From contig NC_089435.1 of NCBI RefSeq assembly GCF_026210795.1, positions 1,736,001 through 1,800,000 on the forward strand: a DNA stretch of 64,000 nt, in the 5' to 3' direction. Within the stretch, counting starts at the first letter, position 1. Each line of letters begins with the position of its first letter. Positions 2,081 to 41,429 of this stretch are shown here, piece after piece. Source of the DNA: Rhizophagus irregularis. Lineage: Eukaryota. The notes under the pieces were generated by a model. That model was not told the DNA's origin, made no database searches, and saw only the letters and a list, made by a program, of their open reading frames with translations. The position numbers and the translations under genes are program-made.

Positions 2081-5000
2081 ACGATTGCAACGATAAAATG
2101 GTACGAAACTTGGAGAGTTGATTACGAAAATCACAAATTAAGACACGATGAAAATATCAGGAATGTAGATATAAACGAATTAAGAGGAGAAAATATAACA
2201 TGTGAAATATGTTATCCAATAGGAGATACACCAGAAGTTTTCAAGAAATTTTGGAAAATATTGCAAAAATTTGAATATACGATAAAAGATTATAACGCAG
2301 AAACTATAAGAGCGTTATTAAATTTATTGAGTATAGATAGTGAAGAAAGAAATAATTATACAAAAGGAAGGACTAGAGATGCATTGGATGTAATGGTCGA
2401 ATCGATAAGATACTTGAAACAACCAGTATTAAGAGAAAAAGGATTAAAGATAATAATAATAGTAATCGTGAGAGATTGTATAGAAAATGATAAAGAAGAT
2501 GAAACAATGGACAGATTGATAGGGAATGAAGAATTAATAAGATATGGTTATATTTTGGAAGATTGGGATGTAAATATAAGATTTAGGGAATTTTATGAGT
2601 GGTATAAAGAAGCTATAACAGATTTTATAGAATGTAAAGATAGCACTATTAGAAGATACAAAAATATATTATATGAAGAGGCTGAATTAAAAGAAGATGA
2701 GTCAACAGAAAAGATAGAAGCGTTCAAACAAAAAATTAGATTAATGTTGCACACAATGCACATAAGAGTTCGTGAACATGGTTGGGAAATTAGCAAGGAA
2801 ATAGTTGGAAAAGTTTATGATAAGATTAGGGGGTTTGAGCAATTAAATATAGATGAAACAGATAGTGATGACACACCAAGAAGTTATACTATAACAGAAA
2901 CAGACGATGGGGAAGAAGAAAATTTACCAATTAGTAAGAATGAAGAAATGTCAGATGAGGAATCTGATGAATCTAGTGAATCTAATAATGTTGAAGAAAC
3001 AGAAACAACAAAGATATTCGAAGAAATAATTAGAATGGATTTAAAAAGAATGGGATATGATGTAGAAATAACAGAAATTGAAAGAATAAGAAAATTTGGA
3101 GTAACCGCAAAGATAATAACAACGTACGAATTTATGAAGAAATATTTAACAATATGGAATCTTGAAGATGAAGAATTAGATGAGCGAATATTACAATGGA
3201 GAGTTGAAAACACAAAAGAATGCGAAAGATGTGAAATTGAAAGATTAAAGAAAGAATTTAAAATCGGAAAAGAAACTTGCATAGAATGTGAAAAAGATAT
3301 TGAAGAAGAAAATCCAACAGATGATGAAGATGAAGTGGAAGAGGATATAAAAGGACCCGAAATTGGCTCAAGTAAAAAATCAAAAAGCAAAAAGGAAAAC
3401 AAAGAATTGAAGAAAACACCTATAATACCAATAATACCAGTACCACCAATAAAACCAAAGATAACAATGGCAGCAACAAGAGATGAAGTCAGGGCAGATC
3501 TAAGAGCAGTAACAAGTACTATGTATGGTCATGATATTGGGCCAGATTGGAACAATTTAGCAGTACCACCAATAACATTGACAGGATTACAAGGAGAAAT
3601 TCAAGCGAATACTAATGCGATAGGAAATTTAAACGCAAATAGGGGAGCTATTGTGGAATTACCAGCATTTTATGGTACCAGTGGAGAAGATCCAGAAGAA
3701 TGGGCAGATAAATTTGAGGAGGCGTTTACAGCGAATGGTTTAGGGAATGATGATGCACAGAGATTTATAATAGCAAAAGCGAGATTAATGGGAGGAGCAG
3801 CAGATTGGTTAAAAACTGAAGGAGTAAATATTGCCGATTGGAATGTTAATGGGGATCATAATTTAAGATTAAGAAGAAGAATAATTGGAAAGTATGCGAG
3901 TGATGAAATTAAAGATAGATGGCTAGAACAATTAGAAAAGATTAGACAGAGAGACGAGAATGTAACTCAATACCTTACGAGATTTAAATATATGTTAAAG
4001 AGAGTGGGAGGTGATGCAGAGTAGCAGCAAATCAGCAAAAGAGGATTTTTATTAGAGGATTAAAACCGGATTTTACTAAGGACGTAGTAATGGGAAATCC
4101 AGCAGATTTAAATGCAACATTTCAGATAGCAAAAAACGTAGAAAGAGGTTTAGAAGCATTAACAGATAAAGTACAACCAAAAGAAATTAATGATGAACAA
4201 AGAAGACAAGAACCTATTGTTCAAGGGAATGTAAGGAATAATAAAGAGGTAAATGTAGATGAATTAGCAAGCAGTTTTGCGAAGTTACAAATTAAGATGT
4301 TAGAAGATGAGAATGAAAGATTAAGAAATTTAGCGAGTCAGAGTCATAGGCGATTGCCACAAAGAAACCAACCAATACAAAGAAATCAACCAATTCAAAG
4401 AAATCAGTCATTCCAAAAAAGAGTACCGACATGCTATACATGTGGTAGAGTTGGTCATTATTCAAGAGAGTGTCCGGAGAAAAGAAGGAATGCAAAAGTG
4501 AATATGATGGACGAATATGATGACCAAGAAAAATATGATTATGATGAATATGGATACGAGGAACCACAATATAACGAAATGTATTATACACAAGGTTATT
4601 ACGATGATTATGAAGATAGGGAATTAAATTATCATAATGAATTGTACGCAAAAGATAACGCGGTAAAAACAAGAAGACAAACAAGAAGGACGGATCCAAC
4701 AGTGGGATATAAAAATAATAATGAAGAAGGAAATTTACAAGAAGAATTAAGAGAAGCAGGAAATAGAATGGATGATAGAGAAATACCAATTGGTACAACG
4801 GCACCAAATTATATACCTGAACGAACTGAACAGAATGGGGATAGAACGATAGGATCAAGAAAAATGAAATGGAGCAATAAAAGACAAGATTATTACGACC
4901 CAACTGAAGGACTAAGAAAATGGAGAGAAGCAGGAAGACCAACAAAACCCAGAGAGTATGGACCAAAATTAACTGACGGAATACCACCTTACGACATCGT

Positions 5001-5103
5001 GGGAGACGTGAAAAATTGTAGAGCGAATATAACATATGGACAATTAATAAGCGAGAATCCTAAGTATCATAAGCGATTGAGACATATAGACCAAGAAGTA
5101 TAG
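2081..5103 (+). pseudogene. gag: Gypsy 1 gag (frameshifted near 4020; true start uncertain)
   Basis: Frame open from 2081 with HxxxH..CxxCYP; capsid motifs FYGTSGEDPEEW and IRQRDENVTQY. Reading resumes in another frame at 4021 (VAANQQKRIFIRGL) and leads to zinc knuckle CYTCGRVGHYSREC. Confidence 0.88.
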
Positions 5104-5126
5104 ACGAGAAAAATTGACTACACTCG

Positions 5127-5630
5127 GTGGGAACTATGAAAAATGAGGAAAAAAGAACTACAGCAATGAGAACGGAATTAGAAGTTGAAGATCAATTAGT
5201 GAATGTAATAATAGATACTGGAGCAGCAGTAAGTGTGATAACAGATAAATTAAGAAGAAGATTGAATATACCTATATTTGGAAAAAGTAAATTTAGATGT
5301 ACAATAGCAAATGGACAAAAGATAGCAGCATTAGGAAAAGCAAATATAACTTTGAGGTACAAAGACGAATTAGAGATATTAAAAGAAGTTGAAGTGATCA
5401 ATTCAGAAGAAGAAGATCTAATTTTGGGAAATGATATATGGAAGTTGTATAATGCAAAAATAAATTTTGAAGATCATACCTTAAGAATAGAAGAACAGGG
5501 AGAAATAATAATGATTCCAGTAGGATATGAAAGAGAAGTAGCATATGAAAGTGAGGAGAGCGAGGACGATGAAGAATACGAAAGTAACGATGAAGGAGAG
5601 GTATTCAGAATGCACCAGAATTTTAAATAG
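5127..5630 (+). CDS. Gypsy 1 retropepsin aspartic protease (separate ORF)
   Basis: VIIDTGAAVSVI active site, ANG flap, LILGND motif. Confidence 0.92.
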   Translation: MGTMKNEEKRTTAMRTELEVEDQLVNVIIDTGAAVSVITDKLRRRLNIPIFGKSKFRCTIANGQKIAALGKANITLRYKDELEILKEVEVINSEEEDLILGNDIWKLYNAKINFEDHTLRIEEQGEIIMIPVGYEREVAYESEESEDDEEYESNDEGEVFRMHQNFK

Positions 5631-5665
5631 AAAGTCTTGGCTCTGAAGAGAGAGAGACGGAAAAG

Positions 5666-7747
5666 ATGCTCGAACCAAGTGAAAAATTTATGCAAAAACT
5701 AAGTATAGAAAAAGTAGAAGAACCGATTTGGGAAAATATGGTAAAATTACTATTAGAATACCAAGATATCTTAGAGTACGACGAGGAAATAGAAGAAAGA
5801 ACAAAAGCAGCGCAACATGAGATAAAAATAAAAGATGGGATAGAACCAATAAAGCAGAGAAGATATAAAGAAACAGATGAAAAGGCAAAATTTATAAGCG
5901 AAGAAGTAGATAAATTGTTAAAACAAGGAAGGATAAGGAAATCAAAAAGTCCATGGAGTTCACCGGTTACATTAGCAGGAAAGAAAACGGGAAAATATAG
6001 ATTCTGTATTGATTACAGAAAGTTAAACAAGATAACTATAATGGATAGTTTTCCTTTACCAAGAATGGATGAATTACTAGATAAATACAGGAAAGCAAAA
6101 TGGTTTTCAAGTATAGATTTAGCGGCAGGATTTAATCAAGTAGAAATGAAAGAAGAAGATAAAGAAAAAACAGCATTTGTATGTTCAAAAGGATTATTTG
6201 AGTATAATGTAATGCCGTTCGGTTTAACGAATGCACCAGCAACATTTCAAAGATTAATGGATGAAATATTAGAAGAATACATAAACGATTTTGTAGTAGT
6301 ATATATCGATGATATTATGATATATTCAGAAAATTTAAAAGACCATATGGAACATGTGGAAAAAGTATTAAAGAAGTTACAGGAGAATAATTTAATAATA
6401 AAATTAAAGAAATGTAGATTTTTGGAAAGAAACATAGAATTTTTAGGACATATAGTAGGAAATGATGGATTAAGGCCAGACGATAAAAAGATAGAAAAGA
6501 TAAAAGAAATGAAAGCACCAACAACAGTGAAAGAAGTAAGATCATTTTTAGGACTTTGTTCATATTACAGAAAATTTGTGAAGAATTTTTCAAAGATAGC
6601 AAGACCAATAAGCAATTTGAGAAAGAAGGGAATACCTTTTATCTGGGGAAAAGAACAACAAGAAGCGTTTGAAAGATTGAAAGAAAAGTTAATACAATAT
6701 CCAATATTACGACATCCAGATTGGAAGAAAGAATTTTTATTAATAACAGATGCATCAGGAAAAGGACTAGGTGCAGTATTAAGTCAAAAAGATGAAAAGG
6801 GAAAAGAAGTAGTAATAGCATATGCGAGTAGAAGCTTATTACCAGCAGAAGAAAATTATCCGATAACAGAATTGGAATGTTTAGGAATAGTTTGGGGAAT
6901 TCAACATTTTCATAAATATTTAATCGATAGAAAATTTAAAGTAATAACAGATCACAGTGCATTGAAAGGATTAATGAATGCAAAGATACCAAAAGGAAAA
7001 AGAGCAAGATGGGTAATGGAATTACAGCAATATAATTTTGAAGTAATACATAGGTCAGGAAAAGAAAATACGAATGCCGACGCATTAAGTAGGTTATTAA
7101 AGATAGTAGAGGATCAACCAGAAATAGTAATAATTGATGGAGTAGATGGATTAGGAAAAACAAGTATAGTACAAAATTTAATTAAAGAATGGGAAAAACA
7201 AGGATTAAAAGTAAGATTCAATACTTATAAAAGAAGAAGAAAAGATAAAGATGAATTTCACGAATCAAAGATGAATACAGAATGGAAATTCAGAAAAGAA
7301 GTAGTGGAACAAATAAATAGAAGAATGTTAGAATATGATGAAGATACAGATATAATAATTTTAGACAAATCACCATATTGTGAATATTATTATCAAAAGA
7401 CGAAAAGCTTTGACAGAGGATTAATTACTCCGCATGGAAATCATGAGATGGAAAAAGAAATATTCAGATTGAAAGAAACGATAGATAAATCAATAGTGAT
7501 ATTTTTAGAAAAAGATGGCGACGTATGTTGGAAAAATTACATCGGAAGAGAAACAAAGAAAACGGAAAAATCATCATATCCAACATTAAAGAAGGATGAA
7601 TATTTGGACATGGTTAGAATGTTTGAAGAAAATCAGAGCGTGTACAAAGATACCGAAAGATACAGTCGAGTAAAAGTTAAAAATGACAATAGTAGTTGGA
7701 GAAAAGTATTTAAAGAGGTGGAGAAATGGAGAAGAGCACAGAACTAA
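5666..7747 (+). CDS. pol: Gypsy 1 reverse transcriptase-RNase H with C-terminal P-loop (thymidylate/dNMP kinase-like) domain
   Basis: RFCIDYRKLN, MPFGLTNAPATFQ, YIDD; RNase H TDAS...ELE...TDH...NADALSR; then IIDGVDGLGKTS and IILDKSPYCEYYYQ. Confidence 0.95.
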   Translation: MLEPSEKFMQKLSIEKVEEPIWENMVKLLLEYQDILEYDEEIEERTKAAQHEIKIKDGIEPIKQRRYKETDEKAKFISEEVDKLLKQGRIRKSKSPWSSPVTLAGKKTGKYRFCIDYRKLNKITIMDSFPLPRMDELLDKYRKAKWFSSIDLAAGFNQVEMKEEDKEKTAFVCSKGLFEYNVMPFGLTNAPATFQRLMDEILEEYINDFVVVYIDDIMIYSENLKDHMEHVEKVLKKLQENNLIIKLKKCRFLERNIEFLGHIVGNDGLRPDDKKIEKIKEMKAPTTVKEVRSFLGLCSYYRKFVKNFSKIARPISNLRKKGIPFIWGKEQQEAFERLKEKLIQYPILRHPDWKKEFLLITDASGKGLGAVLSQKDEKGKEVVIAYASRSLLPAEENYPITELECLGIVWGIQHFHKYLIDRKFKVITDHSALKGLMNAKIPKGKRARWVMELQQYNFEVIHRSGKENTNADALSRLLKIVEDQPEIVIIDGVDGLGKTSIVQNLIKEWEKQGLKVRFNTYKRRRKDKDEFHESKMNTEWKFRKEVVEQINRRMLEYDEDTDIIILDKSPYCEYYYQKTKSFDRGLITPHGNHEMEKEIFRLKETIDKSIVIFLEKDGDVCWKNYIGRETKKTEKSSYPTLKKDEYLDMVRMFEENQSVYKDTERYSRVKVKNDNSSWRKVFKEVEKWRRAQN

Positions 7748-7807
7748 AAATACAGAACACATAACGAAAATAACAAATTTAGAAGCGAAATCAACTAAAG
7801 AAGTATT

Positions 7808-9034
7808 ATGGAAGAAAATAATTACAAGAGAATAATTAACAATATCGAAAAGGAGAATAAATATGAATTGAAAGAGGGAATTCTATATAGAGTGAAAGGA
7901 CAAAACAAATTTAGAGTAATTAGAGATTATGAATACGAGGGATTGATGTACATGATGCATGATAATGAATTATCAGGACATTTTGGGATAGAAGCGACAT
8001 TAGATAGAATAAAAGAAAATTATTGGTGGAAAAATATGAAAGAAGATGTAGAAGAATACGTAAGAACGTGTTGGAATTGTCAAATGAGAGGAAAACCAAG
8101 AGGAAAGAACGAATTGACATCAATAAAGATAAATGAACCATTCGAAATGATTGGGATAAATATAGTTGGACCATTAAAAGAGACAGAAAAGGGAAATAAG
8201 TATATTGTAGTAGTAATGGATTATTTTACGAAATGGCCCGAAGCCGCACCACTAAAAGAAGCTACAGCGAAAGAGGTAGTAGAATTTATTTGGAGAGACA
8301 TAATTTGTAGACATGGATGTCCAAAGAAAATAATTAGCGATAGAGGGACTCATTTTAACAATAAAATGATGGAAGAATTAGTAGAAAGATGTGGAATAAA
8401 TCATAGATTAAGTACACCATATAGGCCACAAACAAATGGTTTGGTCGAAAGATTCAATAAAACTTTATGCGAGGGATTAGCCAAATTAGGAGAAGAAAAT
8501 TGGGATAAACATATACCATCTGTATTATTTGCATATAGAACAAGAAAGCAATCATCAACAAAAATTAAACCTTTTTATGCGACATACGGAAGGAGAGCAA
8601 AACTACCATTAGATAAAGATGAAAACAAGATAACATTAGCTGACAGAGTAAAGGTATTAATTGAAGAGCTACCGGTAATAAGAAGGAAAATAAAAGAAAA
8701 TGTGAAAGAAGCTCAAGAGAGACAGAAACAACAACACGACAAAAGGGGAATTAGAAAACCTAAATTTGAAATAGGAGAAAAAGTATTATTATATGAAGCA
8801 TGGAGAGAGAAACAATGGTCTGGAAAATTACAGAACAAATGGAAAGGACCATATTTAATTCACGAAGAATTTGGAAATGGAGCGTATAAACTCAAAGAAT
8901 TAGACGGAAGAATACTAAAAACACCACAAAATGGAGAATGGTTAAAGAAATTTTATGATCGAGAGAGATTTACACCAAAAATAGTAATTAAAGGAAAAGA
9001 GGTATTCAATAAGACCCGAGTTCGATTCGATTAG
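7808..9034 (+). CDS. Gypsy 1 integrase (separate ORF; first catalytic Asp appears mutated to Asn)
   Basis: HHCC (HDNELSGH..CWNC), IGINIVGP (canonical IGIDxVGP), SDRG, GLVERFN, WKGPY. Confidence 0.93.
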   Translation: MEENNYKRIINNIEKENKYELKEGILYRVKGQNKFRVIRDYEYEGLMYMMHDNELSGHFGIEATLDRIKENYWWKNMKEDVEEYVRTCWNCQMRGKPRGKNELTSIKINEPFEMIGINIVGPLKETEKGNKYIVVVMDYFTKWPEAAPLKEATAKEVVEFIWRDIICRHGCPKKIISDRGTHFNNKMMEELVERCGINHRLSTPYRPQTNGLVERFNKTLCEGLAKLGEENWDKHIPSVLFAYRTRKQSSTKIKPFYATYGRRAKLPLDKDENKITLADRVKVLIEELPVIRRKIKENVKEAQERQKQQHDKRGIRKPKFEIGEKVLLYEAWREKQWSGKLQNKWKGPYLIHEEFGNGAYKLKELDGRILKTPQNGEWLKKFYDRERFTPKIVIKGKEVFNKTRVRFD

Positions 9035-9110
9035 AATTATTATGAATAAGACACGAGTTTGATTCTATTAAAGTTATTTGTGAGGTCACAAATAGCGAAG
9101 GGGGGGATAA

Positions 9111-10194
9111 TGTAAACGGTCGAATATCAAGCATGAGAATATGATAAAATTCAATCACCAAATGTAATTGTCAAATATTAAGAACGAACAAACTAATTAT
9201 GAATTGGCGTGGATGGATAAATAATTAGCCGAAAAGGATAAACATTTAGAAAGAGTAATGATCTGCATGATGTAATATTTATTGAATGATTGACAAAGAA
9301 CCAATAGGATAAATAGAGTCGATCAATTGGGCTTAGCAATCTTTAACAATAAGAACGATAAGAAAGAATAATTATAAGCCACAAAAGATAGATTATAAGT
9401 AAAACACATAAAGCGGATTGAAAGAACATATAAAATAATGTCAGAAAGATTAAAGAACGTAAAATAATATAAAAGATAATATAAAAAGATAATACAAAGA
9501 TATTATAAAAGATAATATATATATATATAAGATAGCATATTAAAAGATAGCGTATTTAAAATATAGATAGTATATTAGGAAGATAGTTCAAAGATAATAT
9601 GTAAAAAGAACATAAAAGATAGTATATAGATAGAATAGAAAGTAGCGTAAAATTTGTATAAATAGAAAACGGAATTCAAAGTAATTCCATAGTTCTCATC
9701 CACAGAACTCAATAAAAATATAAGTTTTATTTAATTATTTGTTAATGAAGTTTAATGTTAATTAAAGGTAATAGGTTCGCCCTAAACTTTAATTAATGTT
9801 CGCTTAATTAATTTTAATTAAACAAATGAAAATTTTAAGATGAATTAAATATATGTTTTTGAAAAGTAATAATTCGTAGCGAGAGCTATCGAAGTTTGAA
9901 ATTAAAGGTAAAAGTGGATATAATTTGGGGACAATTTAGAGAAGTTAATTTTATTTTATATCGTTCAACGTTTTATATTACTAACGCTATTTATTTTGTG
10001 AACCAAGAATGTTGTTGTATGTTGTTCGTTAATTTTGTTGTTTGTTAATTATGTTGTTGAGTAATCGCTTGTTCATTTATTTGTTTGTTCGTTTGTTCGT
10101 TTGTTCATTTGTTCGTTCGTTCGTTCGACCATGAGAAAGCCCGTTCGATGTGGCAACTCTGTAAATTGATGACAGGGGGAATTGGGGGATCTCA
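9111..10194 (+). repeat. 3' LTR of Gypsy 1 (1084 bp, TG...CA), preceded by PPT GAAGGGGGGG
   Basis: Starts TGTAAACGG directly after the polypurine tract; last 606 bp match the window start. Confidence 0.93.
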
Positions 10195-11731
10195 ACGTGG
10201 AGGAATAGCTATGGCTGGACACCGTTTTCTAAAAGCCAATAACCCTAAGATGGGTGACTCTTTTAATCCCTCTAAACCTACTACCTGGATTTCCTATGTA
10301 GATGCAAACAATCTGTATGGATGGGCTATGAGCCAGTACTTACCTATTGGTAATTACAGATGGGAAGCATCTCCAGAATATTTCAAACAGAATCCAGATA
10401 AGCAGAAGCAGATACTTAATGTAATTCTTAATACAAAACCAGATGCTGCCCGTGGTTACTTCCTAAATATCAAAGCGCACTACCCCCTTAGGACTCATGA
10501 TTATCTACAAGATTTACCTCCTGCAGTTGATAGTATAGCTGTAAAAAAGGATAGGTTAAGCCCATATATAACCAAACTTGTTGATAACTTAGATGGAGGG
10601 CGATTTCCTGAAACAGAGAAGTTAGTTCCACATCTTGGTAAACATGAAGATTATGTCATACATTACCAAGAGCTCCAGTATTACATTAAGTTAGGCATGG
10701 TTGTAGATGAGATTACACAAGTCCTATCATTTGATCAAGATAACTGGTTAGCTCCTTATATTGCAAAAAATACAAATTTACGTCAACAATCCAAGAATTC
10801 ATTTGAGAAAGACTTCTTTAAACTCATGAATAACTCAGTCTATGGCAAGACTATGGAGAATGTACGTAAGTATCAGGATGTCAAGCTTATGAGAATGATC
10901 AATGAAAATGATGAGAAGAAATTCCTTAAGAAAGTTCGCAAGCCCTCCTTCAAGTATGCTCGTCAACTTGGCAACACACTTGTAGGAGCACATATGGGTA
11001 AGGCTAGTGTTATTCTCAATAAACCTATCATTATCGGTGCATCTGTCCTTGGTCTCAGTAAACTCTTAATGTACTGCTTCTGGTATGGTTTTGTCAAAGA
11101 GAAGTATGGAAACAAAGTACGACTTGGATATATGGATACTGACTCCTTTATCTACCATGTCGAGACAGAAGATATTTACAAGGATATGGCAGAGCGTCCA
11201 GATCTCTTTGACCTTAATGATACCAAGACTATCGGGCTTTTCAAGGATGAGACTCCTGGAAATGTAATTACTGAATCTTACCACATCCGTGCAAAATCCT
11301 ACCACTATGTCTTGGCAGACAAGTCTACAAAGTCCAAACATAAAGGAGTAAGCAAGAAGGGTATGAGTGATATGGCTAAGGACACATATTTCCCATCTTT
11401 AGGTGGAACTTTATTAGATGATACAGTAGAAAAAGATGAAATCTTCGATCCTATGACTCAAGTATATCGGGACTGTCTGTTTGAAAATAATATCTTCTAT
11501 GCCAAGAATGTGGGAATGTGTACAAAAAATCATGTAATATTCCTAATCGAGTCAGAGAAGAAGGCATTATCCCCAATCGATACAAAACGCTGGATTTGGT
11601 CAGATGGTATATCCTCCTTACCATTCGGACACTGGCGTATTCAAGTATATAAGAAACTTCTTGAGCGTGGCACAAGTCATGAGGCAGCAGAAAAAATAGC
11701 TATAGGAACCAGATTACCAGAGAAATATTAG
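10195..11731 (+). pseudogene. polB: Protein-primed family B DNA polymerase, C-terminal half (interrupted by Gypsy 1)
   Basis: RGG, YVDANNLYGWAM, KLMNNSVYGK, YMDTDS, KHKGV motifs; the first ~36 aa of the listed ORF come from the LTR. Confidence 0.93.
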
Positions 11732-15818: not shown

Positions 15819-15862
15819 TTCCTATTATTAAAATAGATTCTGATGAAGCATGAAATGTAGAG

Positions 15863-16906
15863 GTGACTTCGACTTTATGTAGAATATTTTATCAACCATC
15901 TGGATATCAGAGGACTGCCAAAAAATTGTATGAGACATCACAAAATGCTGGATATGATTTCACCTTAGATGAAGTGCAGGATTGGCTTGAAAGACAGGCA
16001 GTACATCAAGTTCACAAACCTCATCCCCGATTTATCCCTCGTGTAAGTTTTAGTTCTATACAAGTTCCCAATGAAGTTCATCAAGCTGACATTTTGTATA
16101 TGCCATATGACAAGGTTGGACATGTGACTTATCTTTTCTGTCTCAATATAGTTGATATAGCATCGAGGTATAAAGAAAGTGTCCCTATAGGTTCAACCAG
16201 TGTTAAAGATCGACAGGGAATCCTAACTTCTCATACTATTGCTTGGGCTTTTGAAAAGGTATATGATGATACAACATGTCCGCTCACTTGGCCAAAATTA
16301 TTGATTACAGATAGGGGTTCAGAGTTTAAAGGTGAGTGTGAAAAGTTGATGACTTCCCATGGTGTAAAGATTCAGAAGGCCAAGTCTAAGCGTACTGTTG
16401 GCATTGTGGAGCGATATAACCGTACCTTGGTTGAGAAACTATTTCCCTCTCAAGATGCATCTGACTTACTAACTTTAGGTAAAACGAGATCTCGAATCTG
16501 GGTAAAAAACTTGCCTATTGCTGTAGAAAGTATAAATAACTCAGTGACCCAACAACTTGGTATATCTTCTGTTGTAGCTATAAAAAAATCACGAGTGTCT
16601 TCCAGATCTTCTTATCCTCGTGATGGACCTGTTGGGTATGAAAAGGAGAAACTACCACCTGATATAAGTGTAAGGTACTTACTTGAACCAAATGATCTGG
16701 AAGGTGGAAGACGTCGAGCAGGAGATATGAATTGGTCACCTAAGATTTATTATATCCATATGTCTTTAACACAGAAAAATCAACCAGTTTTGTACTGGCT
16801 TATTGATGATGATGGTAAAGAATCAGAGAGATCCTTTGTGAGGGAAGAACTTTTGGTTATACCAGATGATACAGAACTTCCACCACAATGGGTACTTATG
16901 AATTAA
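15863..16906 (+). CDS. Polinton-type c-integrase (rve), element A; 5' end decayed
   Basis: HQADILYM, LITDRGSEF, VERYNRTL DDE core; N-terminal YQPSG..KLY..VQDWL as in Polinton integrases. Confidence 0.92.
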   Translation: MTSTLCRIFYQPSGYQRTAKKLYETSQNAGYDFTLDEVQDWLERQAVHQVHKPHPRFIPRVSFSSIQVPNEVHQADILYMPYDKVGHVTYLFCLNIVDIASRYKESVPIGSTSVKDRQGILTSHTIAWAFEKVYDDTTCPLTWPKLLITDRGSEFKGECEKLMTSHGVKIQKAKSKRTVGIVERYNRTLVEKLFPSQDASDLLTLGKTRSRIWVKNLPIAVESINNSVTQQLGISSVVAIKKSRVSSRSSYPRDGPVGYEKEKLPPDISVRYLLEPNDLEGGRRRAGDMNWSPKIYYIHMSLTQKNQPVLYWLIDDDGKESERSFVREELLVIPDDTELPPQWVLMN

Positions 16907-19154: not shown

Positions 19155-19160
19155 TAGTAT

Positions 19161-19780
19161 TGTTACAATGAAAAACAATGCGACGAAGTCACGTGATATA
19201 ACCGATGATCAATGGTAATTACCGGGATAATTGGTATTACCAATGTGTGATTGTATGATCAACGTCATATAGCGGGAAGATTAATGTTCGAAATGTTTAT
19301 ATTAAATATATTGCACATATTGCACATATGGTATATATGGCATATATTAAACATTTTAAACATTTTTAGTTTAGTGTTTTTGCTTATAAATAGACGCGAT
19401 GTTTTTCGATGTAATTAGATAGGTATCCAAGTCAATAAGATATTTACCGATATTAAATAAAAACATATTTTATTATTTATAATATCTTTGGTTATCTCAT
19501 TGTTTATTTTATAGTTTGTTATAATTGTGAGTCAATATTGCGTCTGAGTGTATATGCCTGTGTGTGCAATACCGTATTCGAATTTGACTGAAATTTTATT
19601 TTGTTTTATTGTGTAACCTTCGTAAATCGATTGACAGTGATACATTTACTAATATTTACATATAGTTATTTTCACTTTGCGTTCATTAATATTATTTAAC
19701 ATTTATTTTATTCAATTATCCTTCTGCTTACCATACACCCATACGCTTATTTTTATAAGCATACAAGAACTGGCTTAACA
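19161..19780 (+). repeat. 5' LTR of Gypsy 2 (620 bp)
   Basis: Near-identical to 41430-42061. Confidence 0.96.
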
Positions 19781-21006: not shown

Positions 21007-21488
21007 GTCGTCGGGCTGGTAGTGTGCCTCGCTAGCGCTCACCCCACCTCGGCCAGAGCCTCGCAGTACCTACATCCCCCTCCGTGGGGCAGGGAACCCC
21101 CCATAGATCCTCCACAATTCTCCACATAGATCCTCCACAAAAATATATAACAAAAAAGGATAAAATAAGGGAAAAGAGAGGAAAATAAGAGGGAATCGGA
21201 GAAGTGTGGAGGATGTGGAGGATGTGGAGGACGTTTTAAAAAAATCGGGAGAGGGATCCCCCCAGAAAAAAGTTTTGATTTTACCCCCCAGATCCTCCAC
21301 ATCTTCCACATCTTCCACACGTACAGGATTCCATTCATTTTCCTATTGGAAGCAATGAGATAGCAAACCAGGTAAGTTATTAGCAGGTAAGTCCCTAGAA
21401 GGCCTGTAGAGCCATAGAGATATAACCGGGTAGGAGCGCGGATCTTTGGAAAAAATATATTCGGCAATTGAAGATTAGGTAACTATAA
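21007..21488 (+). repeat. Left TIR of element B
   Basis: Reverse complement of 35452-35933; by eye 1 substitution and 2 compensating homopolymer indels. Confidence 0.97.
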
Positions 21489-21517
21489 ATTAGTACTCGA
21501 TTTGATAGAACGAAAAA

Positions 21518-23863
21518 ATGACCACTCAAGCTCAAGTTATCCCTAAGTTCGGTGAACAAAAGAAAGCCTTCAGTATCGATGAGCTTAAACGGCTTATTGT
21601 CGCTGCAAAGAGTATGAGTGACCTCGATCAAGCCAAGAGGTATCTTTGCAGTTATTTCATTCCCTGTGCAGATCCTCATGGGGTTTTCTGGTGGGACCCG
21701 GATAGTAAAAGTTTGAAACACGTTATTGACAAAAATATTGGTAAACTTATCCGTCCAATCACGAAGGCATTCTACACACAACCTGAACAAGGACCCTCTC
21801 AAAAGACCGAGTTCAACATCTACAAGTGGTTTATGGTCGAGAATACCGATGTATGTAATGCAACCTGTGATCCCCATAAACAGCGAATCTTCAGATCCTT
21901 AACTGGCCAACTCTATCTAAATATCTTCCCGGGATTCCTCCACGTCTTGCGTCCAATATCCACCTTTGAGTCTACAATCCACCTCGCGGTTAAATTTATC
22001 TTTTCTCATATTCGGGATATCTGGTGTTCAGGCGATTGGAATCTTACTGAGTATATCATTAAGTGGTTGGCCGGTGTATCTGCTGGAAGGAAGATGTACT
22101 CGATTCTTTACCTGAAATCTGGACAGGGTTGGGGCAAAGGTATTATAACAGATTTCATTCAGCGCAGCGTCCTAGGCACTCAACTCGTTTATAAGACCAG
22201 CGATCCTCGGACGATTCTTGGAAGTTTTAATGGGCAATTACAGGGTAAGGTTCTTCTTCTTCTCGAGGAAATGCCCACGGAAAAAAGCCAGTGGAATAAT
22301 CTGTATCGCTCTTTGAAGGATAAGGTAACGAGTGACATAATGGAAATCCATGAAAAATACAAGACACCAACACATTATAAAAACTTTATGTCCACTATCG
22401 TCCTAACCAACGAAAATGCTCTCAGAGTGGAGAATGACGATAGGCGCACAGTGTTCTTGGATGTGTCACCATCCCGCAAGGGAGACCTCAACTACTTCAA
22501 AAGACTCAGTGACGCTATGAAATACCCAGGCGCCAGTGAGGCGTTCTATGCTTACTTGAGAGCCATCGCAGACACTTACCCGGACTTCAATGGAAATCCA
22601 CCACCTATGACAACATCCAAACAGGAACATATCATCTCGACTCTTCCACCCCTATTTCAGTTTATAAAGGATACATACCTCGTAATGAAAAATTATATGA
22701 CCGACCTACCTATTCAAGAATTTTATAGGGTATATACTTCATACTGTGAAACTCATGGCATTACACCCTTATCAAAGATAAACGCTTCTAGAATCCTATC
22801 AAATGAGCTAAGTATAAAAAGTAAAAAAATGCGTATAGGTAAAACAACACCACAAGTTTACAGTATATCCAGGGAGGATCTATACAAGAAGTTTCTCGGC
22901 AAAAACTGGATCCACGAAACAGACGAGATAGACATAGAAGGAATTGATATAGAGACTTCTAAGAAACCCGCATCAGACCCCAAAGCCTTGGAAAAGTTCT
23001 TGGCAAATATATATAATCCAGCTAACAATCCACAAGACGTACAAGAGAAACCCACTGAGAAAAAACCCGAACCCGCTGAGGAAAAACCCACTGAGAAAAA
23101 ACCCGAACCCGCTGAGGAAAAACCCGCTGAGAAAAAACCCGAGCCAGATAACTACGACGTTTTAGATGACTTGCTATCTGACTCAGATTTTACAACTGTG
23201 AACCCAGCTCCTGAACAACAACCCGAGTCTCCCGCAGAATCTTCTGCATCTGTCACTAAGCCTGACCCAGAACCGGCTTCTGAAGAGCAATTTATCCCAG
23301 AACCCGACACAGAACCAGAAGTTGACCGGGATCCTGAACCAAAGGAAGGCACTCGAGCGCACTGGGCTTGGCAAGAAAGACACCGATGGGATCGCAAACC
23401 ATGGGTTAAAAATTTAAAGGACCAGGTCTTCAATGATCTCTACAATACAGGTAAGGAATTATGGGCCAAGTACCAAGATGCGTCAGACGAATATGACTGG
23501 GAAATACTCGCGTTTGAAATAGAGGAATGTCCCACAACGCGTATTGAGGACGAGTACCAGTACTACCTTATGGAGGTAGTAGACCGCTTCAAGGACTGGA
23601 TTGAATATAATGGATACTTACCTAAAATACCTAGCCGTAAAGAACTCGCAGATTTAATAAGAATATACAAGGAGAATCGTAATGCCGAGATTATTCCCAC
23701 CCCCTCTGGTTATGAAACTATGAGGGCAGATAAGGGTAAAGCGCGAGAGATCCCCGAGGAACGTCCAAAAACTGATATGGAACGTGAATGGGAGGCCGCC
23801 AATGGAATCATCGATGACTGGGACGAAGAGGATACTGAGGGCGCTATCAACGACATATTGTAA
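21518..23863 (+). CDS. SF3 (D5-like) helicase with winged-helix region and acidic repetitive tail
   Basis: SGQGWGKG (Walker A), LLLEE (Walker B), IVLTN (motif C), DDRR; EEKPTEKKPEPA repeats. Confidence 0.85.
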   Translation: MTTQAQVIPKFGEQKKAFSIDELKRLIVAAKSMSDLDQAKRYLCSYFIPCADPHGVFWWDPDSKSLKHVIDKNIGKLIRPITKAFYTQPEQGPSQKTEFNIYKWFMVENTDVCNATCDPHKQRIFRSLTGQLYLNIFPGFLHVLRPISTFESTIHLAVKFIFSHIRDIWCSGDWNLTEYIIKWLAGVSAGRKMYSILYLKSGQGWGKGIITDFIQRSVLGTQLVYKTSDPRTILGSFNGQLQGKVLLLLEEMPTEKSQWNNLYRSLKDKVTSDIMEIHEKYKTPTHYKNFMSTIVLTNENALRVENDDRRTVFLDVSPSRKGDLNYFKRLSDAMKYPGASEAFYAYLRAIADTYPDFNGNPPPMTTSKQEHIISTLPPLFQFIKDTYLVMKNYMTDLPIQEFYRVYTSYCETHGITPLSKINASRILSNELSIKSKKMRIGKTTPQVYSISREDLYKKFLGKNWIHETDEIDIEGIDIETSKKPASDPKALEKFLANIYNPANNPQDVQEKPTEKKPEPAEEKPTEKKPEPAEEKPAEKKPEPDNYDVLDDLLSDSDFTTVNPAPEQQPESPAESSASVTKPDPEPASEEQFIPEPDTEPEVDRDPEPKEGTRAHWAWQERHRWDRKPWVKNLKDQVFNDLYNTGKELWAKYQDASDEYDWEILAFEIEECPTTRIEDEYQYYLMEVVDRFKDWIEYNGYLPKIPSRKELADLIRIYKENRNAEIIPTPSGYETMRADKGKAREIPEERPKTDMEREWEAANGIIDDWDEEDTEGAINDIL

Positions 23864-29315: not shown

Positions 29316-30506
29316 TTACAAAATACTATTGATCCCTACTCGTAATGCTCGACGGTCCATATGACCCTTAGAAAAGATCTGTAAAAGGACCCCGATGCCT
29401 TCTATTAATTTTTTATTATCCAAAGGGTGACTAGACTTCAGGACTTCATATCGGGAGAATAACTCCTTTACGGTCTCAGATTTTGGAATTTCAGTCTTTG
29501 CGGTCCTATCCCGTACTTTTGCTAAGAATTTTTGGAAGTCCGATCCCAGGGTTTTACCAGATAGTCCGTAGGCTTCCCGAAAGACGTACTTAATCCAGGT
29601 ATCTGCGTTCTTAGCTATAATACCAGATACGAGGAGGTGTTTTCTCTCTTTAGGCGATGGATATTCCCGAGCAAACTCAATTAGCTGGGAGGACTTTTTT
29701 GCTTCAGCTACAGCTTTCTGGCCATAAGGACTAAACTTTGATCGAACTGGGTTCAAACTCGGATCGAACGGGGATTGAACTGAGTTCGAACTAGGATCGA
29801 ACTGAGATTGATCAGTGATCGAACTGAGACTAGTATCCCATCTAACCCGAATGGATAACGGATCGCTCTTGGATCTTCTAAGATCAAATACTATAAATTC
29901 GCGTTGCAGAGTAAGGTCATCGATTACTGGAGCTAGTGACTCCGATTCTTCTGTATACTGGCGGATGATCCTCTTAGTATCAGTCAAACTTCCGTGACCT
30001 CCATGTAGGGAAATATAATTCACATTTTCACGAATAGCCTTGGGAATGGTAAAGAATCTTTGGGCCACATAAATACATGAAATATTTTTGTGTTGTCCGT
30101 GTGTAAAAAATCCAGTGATGAGATCCTGGGTTTTTTTAGGCGCATCCATCAAATCCTCGAAGATTACCACAGTAGCCTGGGTGGAGTTGAAGTCCTTAAC
30201 ATTTGGAATCTCACTATGGGATACTGCGGTAAACGGAATTTCTTCTTCTTTGAAAAAATCACGTACGATTGCCCACTTCGGTTCATCGAGGTATCTGCCA
30301 ACTAGAATTACCGCATCACATAATATGTACCTTTCGCCATCCTCCTTTGCCTTCTTGTCTCCCATTAACAAATTAATGATCATAGTTGTCTTACCCGAGT
30401 CAGAACTTCCTGCTACGGCAAGACAGAAAGGCCATGATGGGGCAAACTCATTACCCTGTCTCGAGTCGGTCGTGTACTCGTCCAAATTGTATACATAAAG
30501 ATCCAT
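29316..30506 (-). CDS. A32-like (FtsK-HerA) DNA-packaging ATPase
   Basis: VAGSSDSGKTT, VVIFEDL, THGQHKNISCIYVAQ..IPKAIREN (canonical GRHxxIS...Q...P..IR.N). Confidence 0.88.
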   Translation of the reverse strand: MDLYVYNLDEYTTDSRQGNEFAPSWPFCLAVAGSSDSGKTTMIINLLMGDKKAKEDGERYILCDAVILVGRYLDEPKWAIVRDFFKEEEIPFTAVSHSEIPNVKDFNSTQATVVIFEDLMDAPKKTQDLITGFFTHGQHKNISCIYVAQRFFTIPKAIRENVNYISLHGGHGSLTDTKRIIRQYTEESESLAPVIDDLTLQREFIVFDLRRSKSDPLSIRVRWDTSLSSITDQSQFDPSSNSVQSPFDPSLNPVRSKFSPYGQKAVAEAKKSSQLIEFAREYPSPKERKHLLVSGIIAKNADTWIKYVFREAYGLSGKTLGSDFQKFLAKVRDRTAKTEIPKSETVKELFSRYEVLKSSHPLDNKKLIEGIGVLLQIFSKGHMDRRALRVGINSIL

Positions 30507-30534
30507 TTGAATTTTATTCTAATTTAGTTTAAAT

Positions 30535-33459: not shown

Positions 33460-34551
33460 TTATTCCCAAAACTTGCGGATTAAGGCAGGGACATCCTCCT
33501 CCAACCGGTCAGTGGGTTCCCAAGTGGCTTCGGTATCTGGGTATCGTTCCCACTTGACTAGATACTGGTCTTGACCCTTCCTGATGCGATGCCGGAGTAT
33601 CCGCTCAGGTACAAATCTTTCGGGTTGCCCTCTTATCATGGAGTCAGGTGGGGGATGTTCATTTTCTGGAACAATCTGCAACTCTTTTCGGGTGTACGCA
33701 CATCTGGATACACCTAGACGCCCGTGTGGTCCATCAAGAAGATACGTAGGAGGCTGTTCGGGTGAGAGGATCATTTTTTTGATGACACGGATATTGGGAT
33801 TCCATCTTATGTCACCTGTACGAAATTTTCCATGGAGTTTATTCCCGAGTACTGAAATAGGTTCGTCTAACTTGACTCGGACATGTGTTCCTTCAGAGAG
33901 AAGTTCCGTCTTTTTTGACACTTTGGGTGACCCTGTCGGAATGTCTGGGGGATTTCTCTGCCAGATTTCATCTATTTTATTAACTACATCACGGAAATCT
34001 TCTGACCATTCCACGGATGTCACCCCGGTCTTCAACTCCTGTGCCACCATTCGTTTTAGGAGAGGCTCCTGGATCGCTTGGATAGCTCGTTCAGCGTATG
34101 ATTGCTGTTTGTGTCTTCCTGGCTCTCCAAACCTCATCATCACCCCTAGGCTGTTCAGGAAAAAATCACGTACCTGATCATTGGTGAATTCTGATCCGGA
34201 GTCTGTCTCCATTCGATGTGTTGGTGGTTTAATGCGATTTCTTCTGTAGATTTTAACAAATCCATTGAGAACCCTATTTGCAGTCTTATCCTTTAGGAGT
34301 TCTGCATCAACTCGTTTACCCGCGACTTCCACCACTATGAGAAAATAGTGGAATCCTTTGGGGTCGACTGGCATCTCTGCGAGATCTGCCTGATGCGTCG
34401 CATTTGGTTTCCATACAACTACTCGTGGACGCTCTGATGACTTTTCCTTTAGGGGCTTTTTGTATAGGTTGTAGTGCTCCTCACCTTTTAGAATTCGTGC
34501 TGGTACTCTGGAGAGATTGTAGTATTTGTAGTAATTCTCTAAATGCGACAT
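33460..34551 (-). CDS. Polinton-type c-integrase with C-terminal chromodomain
   Basis: HQADLAEM, TDSGSEF, AERA; chromodomain PERILRHR..YLVKWERY...TWEP. Confidence 0.93.
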   Translation of the reverse strand: MSHLENYYKYYNLSRVPARILKGEEHYNLYKKPLKEKSSERPRVVVWKPNATHQADLAEMPVDPKGFHYFLIVVEVAGKRVDAELLKDKTANRVLNGFVKIYRRNRIKPPTHRMETDSGSEFTNDQVRDFFLNSLGVMMRFGEPGRHKQQSYAERAIQAIQEPLLKRMVAQELKTGVTSVEWSEDFRDVVNKIDEIWQRNPPDIPTGSPKVSKKTELLSEGTHVRVKLDEPISVLGNKLHGKFRTGDIRWNPNIRVIKKMILSPEQPPTYLLDGPHGRLGVSRCAYTRKELQIVPENEHPPPDSMIRGQPERFVPERILRHRIRKGQDQYLVKWERYPDTEATWEPTDRLEEDVPALIRKFWE

Positions 34552-34595
34552 ATTACGACAAATTAAAGGAAAGATTTCGGACTTCAAATCTTAAA

Positions 34596-35451: not shown

Positions 35452-35933
35452 TTATAGTTACCTAATCTTCAATTGCCGAATATATTTTTTCCAAAGATCC
35501 GCGCTCCTACCCGGTTATATCTCTATGGCTCTACAGGCCTTCTAGGGACTTACCTGCTAATAACTTACCTGGTTTGCTATCTCATTGCTTCCAATAGGAA
35601 AATGAATGGAATCCTGTACGTGTGGAAGATGTGGAAGATGTGGAGGATCTGGGGGGTAAAATCAAAACTTTTTTCTGGGGGGATCCCTCTCCCGATTTTT
35701 TTAAAACGTCCTCCACATCCTCCACATCCTCCACACTTCTCCGATTCCCTCTTATTTTCCTCTCTTTTCCCTTATTTTATCCTTTTTTGTTATATATTTT
35801 TGTGGAGGATCTATGTGGAGAATTGTGGAGGATCTATGGGGGTTCCCTGCCCCACGGAGGGGGGATGTAGGTACTGCGAGGCCCTGGCCGAGGTGGGGTG
35901 AGCGCTAGCGAGGCACACTACCAGCCCGACGAC
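35452..35933 (-). repeat. Right TIR of element B
   Basis: Reverse complement of 21007-21488; ends ...GCCCGACGAC, followed by ATAGG. Confidence 0.97.
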
Positions 35934-35938
35934 ATAGG

Positions 35939-36415
35939 GCAAAAGCTTATGAGTTGACTCATAAAGATCAACATGCCGTCAATGCTTATCTAAATAAATT
36001 TGCGCCGTCTGGCACCGGCAATCAATCAGATGACCTTCTTAAGGCAATCAACGAGTTGACTAAACAAGTTCAAAACCTAAGTACTGGAAATCGTGGTAAT
36101 AGAGGTTATAATAATAGTAGTGATTTTAGAAATACGAGTCAATCAACGACATATACACCAAACCGTCAAAACCAAATCGTGTGTTATTCATGTGGTCAAT
36201 CCGGACATATTGTTAGATATTGTCTGAATGGTAATAATAATGATATCCCTAATAATCGACCACCACCACCTATTAATAATAATGGTAATACTAGTAATAA
36301 CAATACGACCGTCCCTCAACCAGCTAATGATAGTGGACAACAACTGGCACAAATTCAGCAGATGTTAGCCCAATTATTACCTCAAGATAATACTAGCGAC
36401 CAATCTTTAAACTAA
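35939..36415 (+). pseudogene. gag: Gypsy 2 gag, 3' part
   Basis: In frame with the 5' part once element B is removed; CYSCGQSGHIVRYC knuckle; ends at T TTA AAC TAA. Confidence 0.9.
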
Positions 36416-39400
36416 ATGGCGTACCTTCGGAGGGTAAGCGTACATGCCAAAAGACAATCCCCTCAAACCTTACATTATTGGAAACGTATTCCGCTACTAG
36501 GACAACCTGTAGCATGTCGAGATTAAACCCGTTAGAAGGAACATTAAAGGAGAATCCTACTGAAGAGGAAAATGTATTACGGGCTACGCAGCAAGTGAAT
36601 AAAAGTAAACGACCGATAAAGATATCGGATGTAAGACAAACCGAAGCTAAAAGGATAGTACAAAAAGGAACCAAAAAGAAATTGGTTACTGTAGCCCCAA
36701 TTAACAAAATGGTTGAGCCGTATACTCCTCAACAATTTTTTGACCAAAAGGCTGATATCACCAATGGTCAATTGTTGGCTATGAACCCGAAATTTGGATT
36801 GACAATTGCCAAACAATTACGAAAACCTGTAGTTAGAAAAAGGGACGATGACCAGGACAAGAAAACAATTAAGATGGTAATCGACGAAGTGACCCAAGAA
36901 AATGGAAATACGCCTGAAGTCAATGATTTACTACAAGTAAATCTTTCAAAACCAAACGATGATAAAACTTCAGCGTTATATTGTGAAGCCTTGATAAATC
37001 ATATCAAGTTTCCACTAATAGTCGATTCAGGGTCAGCTGGAAGTATTATATTCTTATCGTTATTAAAGGATTTAGAAATGGAAATAACCTAAGCGTCAAA
37101 AACTGTTATGGTCAACGTAAACGGTAAAAGACAAAGGCCGTTAGGGGCAGTAACCAATCTGCTACTAAAAATACATGGTTGTATTATCCTTATAGACGCC
37201 ATCGTTACAGACGCTAACTCATATTCCGCAATTGTTGGTAACGACTAGTTACGAAAGACTAAGGCTATCTTAAATTATGATAGCAATATAATGGTCATTA
37301 AGTGGCAAGACGAAACGTTTGAAGTCGCCACTGAGTGTAGGGAGATGCCTCAACACATTGTAAGTATTGAAGTGCCTGACTTGGAGGTAGATGAAAATGA
37401 AGAGGAAGCCGCTAACGAATCTGAAGAAGAAGAGTACGAAAGCGATGACGAAGAAACGCAAGATCAATTATTTTGCAATGCTCAATTTATAACTAAAGAA
37501 CAAGCGCAAGAAATCGAAGATGATTTAAAAGACAATAAACTTGTCAAAAATGAGTTTTATTATCAATATGAAGAAATAGAGAAGGGCAATTTTCATACAG
37601 GAAAACTGAGTAAAGAACAACATCAGAAATTCCGAAAGTTTATGGAGCGACATCAGAATTTGTTTGCCTGGAATCCTAATGATTTCGGACAAACATCGGT
37701 AATCACCCATAGTATCGATACCGGAACTGCCACTCCAGTTAAACAAAGGTTTTACCAAACTTCATATCAAAACTAATTGTTTATAAAGGATGAAATACAA
37801 TGACTTTTAGAAGCGGGACTAATTATACCATCAAAAAGCCAGTGGACTTCACCAGTAGTAGTTGTAAAGAAGAGAAATGGTAAAAAACGCCTTTGTGTAG
37901 ATTACCGAAAGCTGAACAAAATTACGAAAAGAGACAATTACCTGTTGCCAAGAGTAGATGATATGCTGGAAACCTTGTCAGAATCTCAATGGTTTTCATT
38001 CTTGGACCTTGCCAGCAGTTTTTGGCAAGTTGAATTGGACTCAAAAGACAGAGAAAAATCGACCTTTATCACCAGGTTCAGAACATATGAATTTACGGTG
38101 ATGCCCTTCGGTCTTTGTAACGCTCCTGCCACTTTTCAGCGTTTAATGGACACAGTATTGCGGGATATACTATGGCAATTCATCATAGTATACATAGACG
38201 ATATCAATATAGGTTCCAAAACATTCGATGAACATCTTCATCATTTGGAACAGGTTTTTTATCGATTGGAACAGGCTGGTCTCAAATTAAGCCTGGAAAA
38301 ATGTTTCTTCTTTAAAGAAGAAATCCCATTCTTAGAACATATTGTAAGCCGGAATGGCATACAAACCGATCCAGAAAAATTGCAAACTATCAAGGAGTTT
38401 CCTATACCACAGGACTTAACGCAACTAAGGGGATTCATCGCCCTAGCATCTTATTACCGAAAATTCGTAAAGAATTTTTCGTTTATCGTTGAACTGTTAA
38501 ACCGTTTATTAAAAAAAATGTCCCGTATGTTTGGGGTGAAGAACAACACGATACTTTTGAACGATTAAAGTGTTGTTTAATGACGCCACCAATATTGGCG
38601 TATCCTAATTTTACCAAACCTTTTATTCTTTATACGGACGCTTCCACTTTCACCCTTGGAGCTATACTATCGCAAAAGGACGAAGAAAGGAAGGAACGAG
38701 TAATTGCTTATGCGAGCAGGACTCTCAATAAGCATGAGTGAAATTATGGCGTTACTGAATTAGAGTGTCTTGCCGTCGTATGGGTAGTAAGACACTTTCA
38801 CCATTACCTTCACGGTCAAAAATTTCTTGTTATAACTGATCATGCAGCGTTGAGGTATTTGATGAATATGACTAACCCGATCGGCAAATTCGGCAGATGG
38901 ATAATGACTTTAAACGGATATGAATTGGAAATTATAAATCGCCCAGAAAAATTACACTCCAACGTAGATTCATTAAGCCGAATAAGAGTTAATAAAACTG
39001 ATATATTATATTTTTCTTTACACACACTGGATTAACATTTTTGACACCTCTTTAACGGATTTCCCATCTTTAGATTAACAGAATGGATTTAACAACGTAT
39101 TACTTACTCATCTGATATTTGACAGATTTTTCAATGCTGACTAATATCTCAAAAGAGCAGCAGGCTGCTATAAAAAAAAAGTCTCGATATTTTATAATTT
39201 TAAATAATCAGTTATACAAAAAGAATAAAGACAACCCTAACAGGCCAATTAGAGTAGCTAAAGAAAGTGAAATAGAGGAAATTTTATATCATACACATTC
39301 GGATCCTTTAGCTGGACACTTCTCGATTGACGAAACCTATTGAAGGGTAAAAATCTGCTATTACTGGCCGCAAATGTTTAAGGATGTTCGTAGATATGTA

Positions 39401-41418: not shown

Positions 41419-41429
41419 GAGGAGAGTGA

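Follow-up and report, generated by a model that had tools for sequence, protein, structure and literature searches.

A P-loop kinase domain with a predicted thymidylate kinase/deoxynucleoside kinase (TMK/dNK) fold has been found in the pol region of a Ty3/Gypsy LTR retrotransposon of Rhizophagus irregularis. The domain lies between RNase H and integrase, occurs in three gene layouts, keeps an intact P-loop and is under purifying selection. The kinase is a real, family-wide and selected component of these Gypsy elements, and its link to retrotransposons is apparently undescribed in the literature searched. The best reading, to which about even chances are given, is that this accessory domain of Glomeraceae Ty3/Gypsy elements works as an ATP-dependent dNMP kinase supplying dNTP precursors for reverse transcription.

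Organization of the kinase-bearing element

The window, i.e. the whole stretch of DNA that was analysed, comprises 64,000 nt of the forward strand of R. irregularis NC_089435.1 (positions 1,736,001-1,800,000). Its start is occupied by a Rhizophagus-type Ty3/Gypsy LTR retrotransposon bearing the kinase, with the following features.

1-606, + strand: 5' LTR, 3' part only (the LTR is truncated by the window start), with terminal CA
609, + strand: putative PBS-like TGG, just 3' of the 5' LTR
2081-5103, + strand: gag in two frames (2081-4024 and 4015-5103), with Pfam matches to Retrotrans_gag (weak) and zf-CCHC; CCHC knuckle
5118-5630, + strand: aspartic protease (PR) frame (PF13975/PF13650), preceded by TGA-CTA at 5115-5120
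5631-5668, + strand: spacer from the PR stop to the RT ATG, conserved in comparison with locus L002, with a predicted hairpin
5627-7108, + strand: RT and RNase H (Pfam RVT_1, RT_RNaseH), first Met at 5666
7109-7747, + strand: P-loop kinase domain of predicted TMK/dNK fold, C-terminal to RNase H, with TAA at 7745-7747
7124-7165, + strand: P-loop GVDGxGKT/S, IVIIDGVDGLGKTS, with conserved D13, G16 and K17
7217-7240, + strand: basic cluster N-x-F/Y-K-R-R-R after strand 2, replacing TMK REP/dNK EP
7355-7396, + strand: DKSPY-x-E-x-x-YQ motif, IILDKSPYCEYYYQ, counterpart of the DR/ERS motif in alignments
7496-7510, + strand: VIFLE, in the same open frame as the P-loop and DKSPY motifs
7799-9034, + strand: integrase (Integrase_H2C2, rve) as a separate frame, with its ATG at 7808, 60 nt past the kinase stop
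9098-9107, + strand: polypurine tract, immediately preceding the 3' LTR
9111-10194, + strand: 3' LTR, TG...CA

Paired TG...CA LTRs, a polypurine tract, the order gag-PR-RT-RH-INT and a Ty3-like RT were all found. The RT of Ty3 was the best solved-structure match of the window RT (E ~1e-105, the next being ~1e-70), and Ty3 (Metaviridae) also shares with the element the LTRs, the polypurine tract and a CCHC gag. The usual Ty3/Gypsy pol is one uninterrupted PR-RT-RH-INT frame, whereas PR, RT-RH-kinase and INT are separate both in the window and in L002; the pol of the window element thus differs from that of Ty3 in consisting of three frames with their own ATGs, and in the added kinase.

The 5' LTR was 98.0% identical to positions 9589-10194 across the 606 nt shared, the LTR start and the target-site duplication falling outside the window. 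The gag of the window copy is frameshifted, other copies having one extra base at 4019, and its end is out of register when compared to the L002 locus. With frameshifts in gag around 4019 and towards its end, the window copy is probably non-autonomous, although it keeps open RT-RH-kinase and integrase frames and LTRs of 98% identity.

An identical TGA-CTA context was found at the gag/PR junction of L002, where PR is in frame with gag, and we take this to be a read-through-type context. The PR/RT spacer is near-identical in the window and L002 despite a coding-domain dS > 1, and a hairpin of -10 kcal/mol was predicted in both. By inspection, a slippery heptamer of the classic -1 type was rejected for the PR/RT junction because it does not suit the frames.

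The kinase domain in the window copy

The open reading frame 5627-7747 (+) runs 706 aa from stop to stop, with RT at aa 119-277 and RNase H at aa 340-469 (Pfam). A preliminary description of this DNA had placed a kinase-like domain at aa 485-693, in a numbering whose residue 1 is the initial Met (position 14 of the 706-aa frame), directly after the NADALSR sequence. This in-frame run was borne out: from NADALSR (nt 7073-7093) the frame stays open for ~210-217 residues, and all of the motifs named are in the one frame that ends at TAA 7745-7747. The kinase domain closes the RT frame and the integrase is a frame of its own behind two in-frame stops, the same split being present in other elements. 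Decay as the origin of the stops around the kinase was rejected, as the stops of other elements fall at this same position and their integrase starts at a Met.

The A-rich composition that had been reported as matching the rest of the element was found both overall and at third codon positions. The A content is 0.48 in the kinase domain and 0.44-0.46 in gag/PR/RT/RH/INT, and third-position A is 0.53 in the kinase domain, 0.58 in RT-RH and 0.54 in INT, whereas the adjacent polB frame differs (A 0.34, third-position A 0.28). The depth of polyA RNA across the kinase domain was 0-4.5 reads, from other copies (three runs, about a quarter read).

Distribution of the kinase and its relatives

The domain is shared with other copies, contrary to the single-copy case that the preliminary description had named as a refutation, and recurs in more than 100 proteins of the databases, from metagenomes as well as from Rhizophagus and Glomus. 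The domain search returned 36 proteins of 388-1236 aa (800 candidates), 1 longer protein (301 candidates) and 95 shorter ones (3586 candidates). Named hosts were R. irregularis, with homologues up to 99% identical, R. clarus and Glomus cerebriforme, and the remainder were metagenomic; the sole other organism label was one Gammaproteobacteria MAG record on a 3.9-kb contig, which is probably misbinned. A metagenome scan gave 18 loci out of 148 pattern matches. When 1.84 billion representatives were scanned with HMMER, 63 matches were obtained at E<=0.001, 44 of them at <=1e-10, and generic TMKs and dNKs surfaced only at ~1e-4. Close relatives of the kinase were absent from the phage records (1 weak match, E 0.9), from the viral contigs (three weak generic kinases in one search) and from the prokaryotic genomes (0/7 pattern matches).

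In four more distant relatives (P0140, P0141, P0179 and P0190) an N-terminal NUDIX domain is joined to a DKSPY/DKTPY kinase with ~28-32% identity to the element kinases (E 6e-30 for P0140 and 3e-25 for P0141). NUDIX-kinase fusions were also observed in P0181 and P0188, and one cluster has 71 members from ENA, JGI and NCBI, the listed contigs reaching ~11 kb. Stand-alone kinases have an N-terminal extension of 40-50 aa, and its origin as a NUDIX remnant was tested and not supported: the HHalign probability was 4% (E 0.01), and in HMM scores five of the seven extensions fell in the shuffle range, the other two being reached by 2 of 200 shuffles.

The NUDIX-kinase fusions support a nucleotide-handling role, NUDIX hydrolases being nucleotide-pool enzymes too, and they also feed an alternative of low probability. 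In this alternative the substrates would be damaged or non-standard nucleotides (base modification, pool cleaning), or the enzyme would oppose a nucleotide-draining host defence, rather than contributing to bulk dNTP. Among the HMMs the best match is to a phage family, PHROG 761, and not to cellular TMK; a weakly matched phage kinase has the same DR-x3-SE-x2-Y spacing, another adjoins a dUTPase/MazG-like frame (labelled by eye), and the altered substrate pocket is invariant, all of which would suit such an activity. The link between the N-terminal extension and NUDIX is, however, not significant, and we know of no nucleotide-draining host defence in these fungi, a point against the counter-defence version.

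Gene layouts and split pol

Three arrangements of the kinase occur between RNase H and integrase, as an RNase H fusion, as its own cistron or as an integrase fusion, the last known from protein records alone, so that a gene-model artefact is possible. It is fused to RNase H in the DNA of the window, L001, L002, L003 and L009, in L016 and L018 it forms a separate frame that follows the stop of RNase H, and in L008 and L017 it begins at its own Met. Many records of 250-265 aa are stand-alone kinases with a 40-52 aa extension, and a 593-aa kinase-integrase fusion (P0030) recurs in a 47-member R. irregularis cluster. The preliminary description of the kinase as fused after RNase H in Pol therefore holds for the window and some subfamilies; in others the kinase is a separate cistron.

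In every one of the 14 listed junctions, from 13 loci and from the window, the kinase frame ends in a stop, and in 8 of these 14 the next ATG lies within 20 nt of the kinase stop. Exact TAATG or ATGA overlaps occur at the kinase end in L002 (3010-3018), L013 and L015, and an ATGA overlap was found at the RH/kinase junction of L018. The split of pol was observed family-wide (window 5103-5668 and 7745-7810; L002 374-926 and 3010-3018; L013, L015 and L018). In viruses and in SART1 stop-start overlaps mark termination-reinitiation, according to PMC10275272, and by analogy those of the kinase elements may work in the same way.

In a quick tree, which contains one generic TMK (P0173) mislabelled as stand-alone and whose root is open, the RH-fused label takes 6 changes, at least 2 of them forced by the starred branches, and the window falls in a 7-member RH-fused clade (98%). 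The RTs of P0011 and P0012 are 72% identical to that of the window and their kinases 87-88% identical, which suggests exchange or recombination of the kinase between element subfamilies (P0011, P0012, P0014 and P0034).

Some loci carry additional small frames. Between kinase and integrase, L011 has a frame of 144 aa (655-1089) whose start is F-box-like by eye. A small frame, 47 aa long in L009 (977-1120), recurs at the corresponding location in one subfamily, and the L004 and L014 spacers contain similar text. Coiled-coil-like extra frames (by eye) were seen after the kinase in L001 (1010-1291) and before it in L008 (3-389), with similar text in P0022 and P0032.

Selection and conservation

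The dN/dS of the domain across copies, a comparison proposed in the preliminary description, indicated purifying selection similar to that of RT. The Nei-Gojobori median was 0.19 for 19 kinase sequences (166 of 170 pairs usable), as compared with 0.155 for RT (10 pairs), 0.157 for RNase H (15) and 0.246 for integrase (45), the pairs being non-independent and dS often near saturation. Close kinase pairs gave values of 0.04-0.12, with 0.08 for the window against L001/L002, and the closest pairs 0.04-0.07. In close copies from sequencing runs, 17 of the 23 displayed substitutions in the kinase domain were at the third codon position (hand count; 89 rows not shown). The long residence in the element that had been proposed from its composition is in keeping with this selection, with the multi-copy nature of the domain and with homologue identities of ~41-99%.

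Conservation was determined in 64 sequences of less than 90% identity, drawn from the window and from those proteins, 85 out of 132, in which the domain spans 150 aa or more. In the P-loop, D13 and G16 are each present in 59 and K17 in 60 of 61 non-redundant homologues. The basic cluster keeps K41 in 64/64, R42 in 61/64 and R44 in 62/64, and in the DKSPY motif K87, Y90 and Y95 are each invariant (64/64), with E92 in 62/64. Residues conserved at 95% or above are D13, G16, K17, K41, R44, R62, N70, R72, D86, K87, Y90, E92, Y95, Q96, R103 and R147. The glutamates E67, E92 and E117 are conserved among the homologues.

That the kinase is a neutral captured passenger is very improbable. In favour of a passenger, a sister Gypsy element does without the kinase and its RNA signal is low, but the near-invariant motifs across the 64 sequences and the retention of the domain through changes of gene layout argue against it, and the RT-like dN/dS across the 19 sequences contradicts it.

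Predicted fold and sequence family

A TMK/dNK-clade fold was predicted for the kinase domain. The model was built on 13 sequences (pLDDT 83, pTM 0.80) and searched against 48,161 chains with VIA-align. The model matched human dGK 2ocp (Z 15.7, rmsd 3.3, 198 aligned), Staphylococcus aureus TMK 4dwj (Z 14.7, rmsd 3.4, 183 aligned) and Giardia dAK 8puu (Z 14.5), and that of the NUDIX-kinase protein P0141 (kinase part pLDDT ~90) matched TMK at 15.8 (rmsd 3.2, 179 aligned) and dGK at 14.9. The best Foldseek matches were dAK, archaeal adenylate kinase and TMK, and a further search gave viral dNKs/TMKs. The best structural matches of these predicted models are thus NMP or dN kinases, in agreement with the preliminary description. 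The same fold list contains NDUFA10, NadR and PPK2 at Z 11-13, and therefore the fold does not fix the function.

Identity to solved kinases was 10-18%, and a sequence search against solved structures gave matches mainly to the P-loop (FtsY, adenylate kinase) and was uninformative. Pfam PF02223 scored the window protein at 20.4 bits, below the gathering cut-off of 27, and matched 11 of 13 members at E<=0.01 (best 3e-8). The NCBIfam dTMP kinase models matched 13/13 members, with the window member far below the cut-off in all of them. PHROG 761 (phage thymidylate kinase) covered the whole kinase domain (E 1.6e-13, best member 7e-16) in 13/13 aligned members and also matched 9/9 further relatives. 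It is the best profile match across the full element kinase domain, but the domain matches only part of the profile (positions 21-214 of 362, ending near 214-221, with the C-terminal ~150 positions unmatched), has Lys for Arg, and no close phage relative was found. The nearest Atlas clusters (0.95-0.96) include TMK-like viral and archaeal proteins. The match is judged not to be due to chance because of the sub-threshold PF02223 hit, the whole-domain PHROG 761 match and the recurring homologues.

The active site combines features of two kinase families

A TMK (P0168) and a dNK for alignment were taken from the HMMER scan. In a profile alignment against the TMK the acidic P-loop E/D-G-x-D/E-G-x-G-K-S/T is present, the TMK REP position aligns with F-N-T, after which the K/R cluster follows, and the YQ of the DKSPY motif aligns with the TMK AYQ after the DR motif. 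The Arg of the DR motif, catalytic in TMK and dNK, is replaced by Lys in 64/64 sequences. The Glu of the dNK EP motif is also catalytic, and its position aligns with Thr39 in one profile-to-sequence alignment. The LID R-x-R-x-x-E is incomplete, with R147 alone aligning and the second Arg and the Glu missing.

Thymidylate kinases (PF02223; 4dwj and Thermus thermophilus 5x7j) resemble the domain in predicted fold (Z 13.6-15.8), GxDGxGK and YQ, whereas the element kinase has DK for DR, lacks REP, scores below the Pfam cut-off and is 12-16% identical. Deoxynucleoside kinases (PF01712; 2ocp, 8puu and Drosophila dNK) resemble it in predicted fold (Z 13.3-15.7), in DKS as counterpart of ERS/DRS and in the first LID Arg, whereas the element kinase lacks the EP catalytic Glu, has a TMK-type P-loop and has an incomplete LID. 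Given the TMK-type P-loop Asp, the Lys for the DR Arg and the absence of both REP and the dNK Glu, the aligned residues make the domain a standard member of neither family. The earlier naming as thymidylate/deoxynucleotide-kinase-like consequently stands for the clade of the predicted fold, and is weakened for TMK in particular by the missing REP, the invariant Lys and a dGK match level with TMK by fold.

The domain could instead be a deoxynucleoside (salvage) kinase through which nucleosides would become usable for the element, the base being some other conserved acidic residue, but we consider this unlikely. dGK and dAK are top fold matches of the window model, the alignment to a dNK covers 186 columns (probability 96%) and that to a TMK only 97 columns, DKSPYS resembles the dNK ERSxxS, and the three conserved glutamates could offer the base; moreover, to our knowledge most fungi are without deoxynucleoside kinases. 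This explanation is opposed by the EP position without Glu, by the P-loop Asp, which is TMK-type and not the dNK Ile, by the LID without its second Arg and Glu, and by the P0141 model, which puts TMK first.

An ATP- or RNA-binding module or a nucleic-acid-end kinase, outside small-nucleotide metabolism and helping RT, primer tRNA or particle assembly, would accord with the invariant KRRR cluster, the loss of the DR Arg and REP, and the matches to kinase-fold proteins of other roles (NDUFA10 Z 12.7, PSTK 9.8, Kti12 9.6). These three proteins rank below TMK/dNK, however, the acceptor pocket retains its acidic and aromatic residues and the NUDIX partners point to free nucleotides, and this possibility is regarded as quite improbable.

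A possible dNMP kinase for reverse transcription

As a dNMP kinase, the element enzyme would phosphorylate dNMP in an ATP-dependent manner. The acceptor would be a nucleoside monophosphate rather than a nucleoside because of the TMK-type P-loop Asp, the missing dNK catalytic Glu and the invariant Lys/Arg where the phosphate would bind. In the window subfamily the fusion may cause the kinase to be made with RT and carried into the particle, where local dNTP could be raised for cDNA synthesis when host enzymes are low. The single most likely substrate would be dTMP, a doubtful choice that is favoured partly because the element RNA strand is ~46% A, so that first-strand synthesis draws heavily on dTTP.

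The low identity, the Lys for the DR Arg, the absence of REP, the single LID Arg and the sub-Pfam score all speak against a dNMP kinase, as do the sister Gypsy element without a kinase and the scarce polyA reads over the domain. The host presumably has its own TMK. In yeast, removal of RNR inhibitors led to higher Ty1 mobility and cDNA was not raised, as reported in PMC3002893; dNTP supply therefore need not limit cDNA synthesis.

A dUTPase at the equivalent position of some retroviruses, mentioned in the preliminary description, agrees with PMC4531489, which places the lentiviral enzyme between RNase H and integrase and links it to growth in non-dividing cells. The dUTPase of non-primate lentiviruses is likewise an accessory nucleotide-metabolism enzyme in this pol slot (PMC4531489), but it is a hydrolase and a cleaved part of a single Gag-Pol, whereas the element enzyme is a P-loop kinase that ends the RT-RH frame or has its own cistron. 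Accessory enzymes known in LTR elements include dUTPase and others; some LTR retrotransposons of fungi and rotifers have a dUTPase placed between PR and RT (PMC6431247).

A nucleotide kinase of this kind in a retrotransposon was not described in the literature searched, Repbase and most subscription papers being outside its scope. In a word search, "thymid" was absent from the main texts of PMC8647823, PMC11075540, PMC6431247, PMC6416283 and PMC3248453, and neither "thymidylate" nor "PF02223" occurred in the supplements searched (excluding those of PMC3248453 and PMC6431247, one PMC8647823 file and the PMC11075540 GitHub library). Automatic "thymidylate kinase" labels are present in JGI and UniRef records of the homologues.

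A broader interpretation, held tentatively and with less than even chances, is that a Glomeraceae-wide Gypsy group combines a virus-like polycistronic pol (read-through, stop-restart) with its own DKSPY kinase of a new family, related to phage and NUDIX-kinase proteins. It would be the first known case of a retroelement producing dNTP precursors for itself, and could then reverse-transcribe in syncytial or spore nuclei of the fungus that are not dividing. Retroelements are regarded as reliant on host dNTPs, and the one exception known to us is dUTPase, which removes dUTP. A selected kinase in the pol slot of dUTPase would be a second, different solution. Whether nucleotide supply limits retrotransposition could be tested through one small soluble domain, which defines an uncharacterised kinase family with an invariant Arg-to-Lys change, and the unusual split-frame pol is found in a class of transposons that is abundant in a symbiont of agricultural importance.

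Other features of the window

A second Gypsy element at 37636-40781, with an RT 43% identical, has no kinase. It is decayed (35909-40781) and flanked by direct repeats of 300 nt and 144 nt near 19156-19597 and 41425-41878. Over the gag stretch 2986-3473 of the kinase-bearing element polyA RNA piled up to ~140 deep in one run; since these reads are 90-95% alike and have loose ends, they are attributed to a related transcribed locus elsewhere.

The kinase-bearing retrotransposon appears to be inserted in a Polinton/Maverick-like region (10195-35900, by eye). A polB-like frame (10061-11731, by eye) resumes right after the 3' LTR, with no polB match in the Pfam scan. Other frames identified by eye in this region are integrase-like (15854-16906 and 33460-34590), primase-helicase-like (21509-23863) and ATPase-like (29316-30518), and inverted repeats of 482 nt are located at 21007-21488 and 35452-35933.
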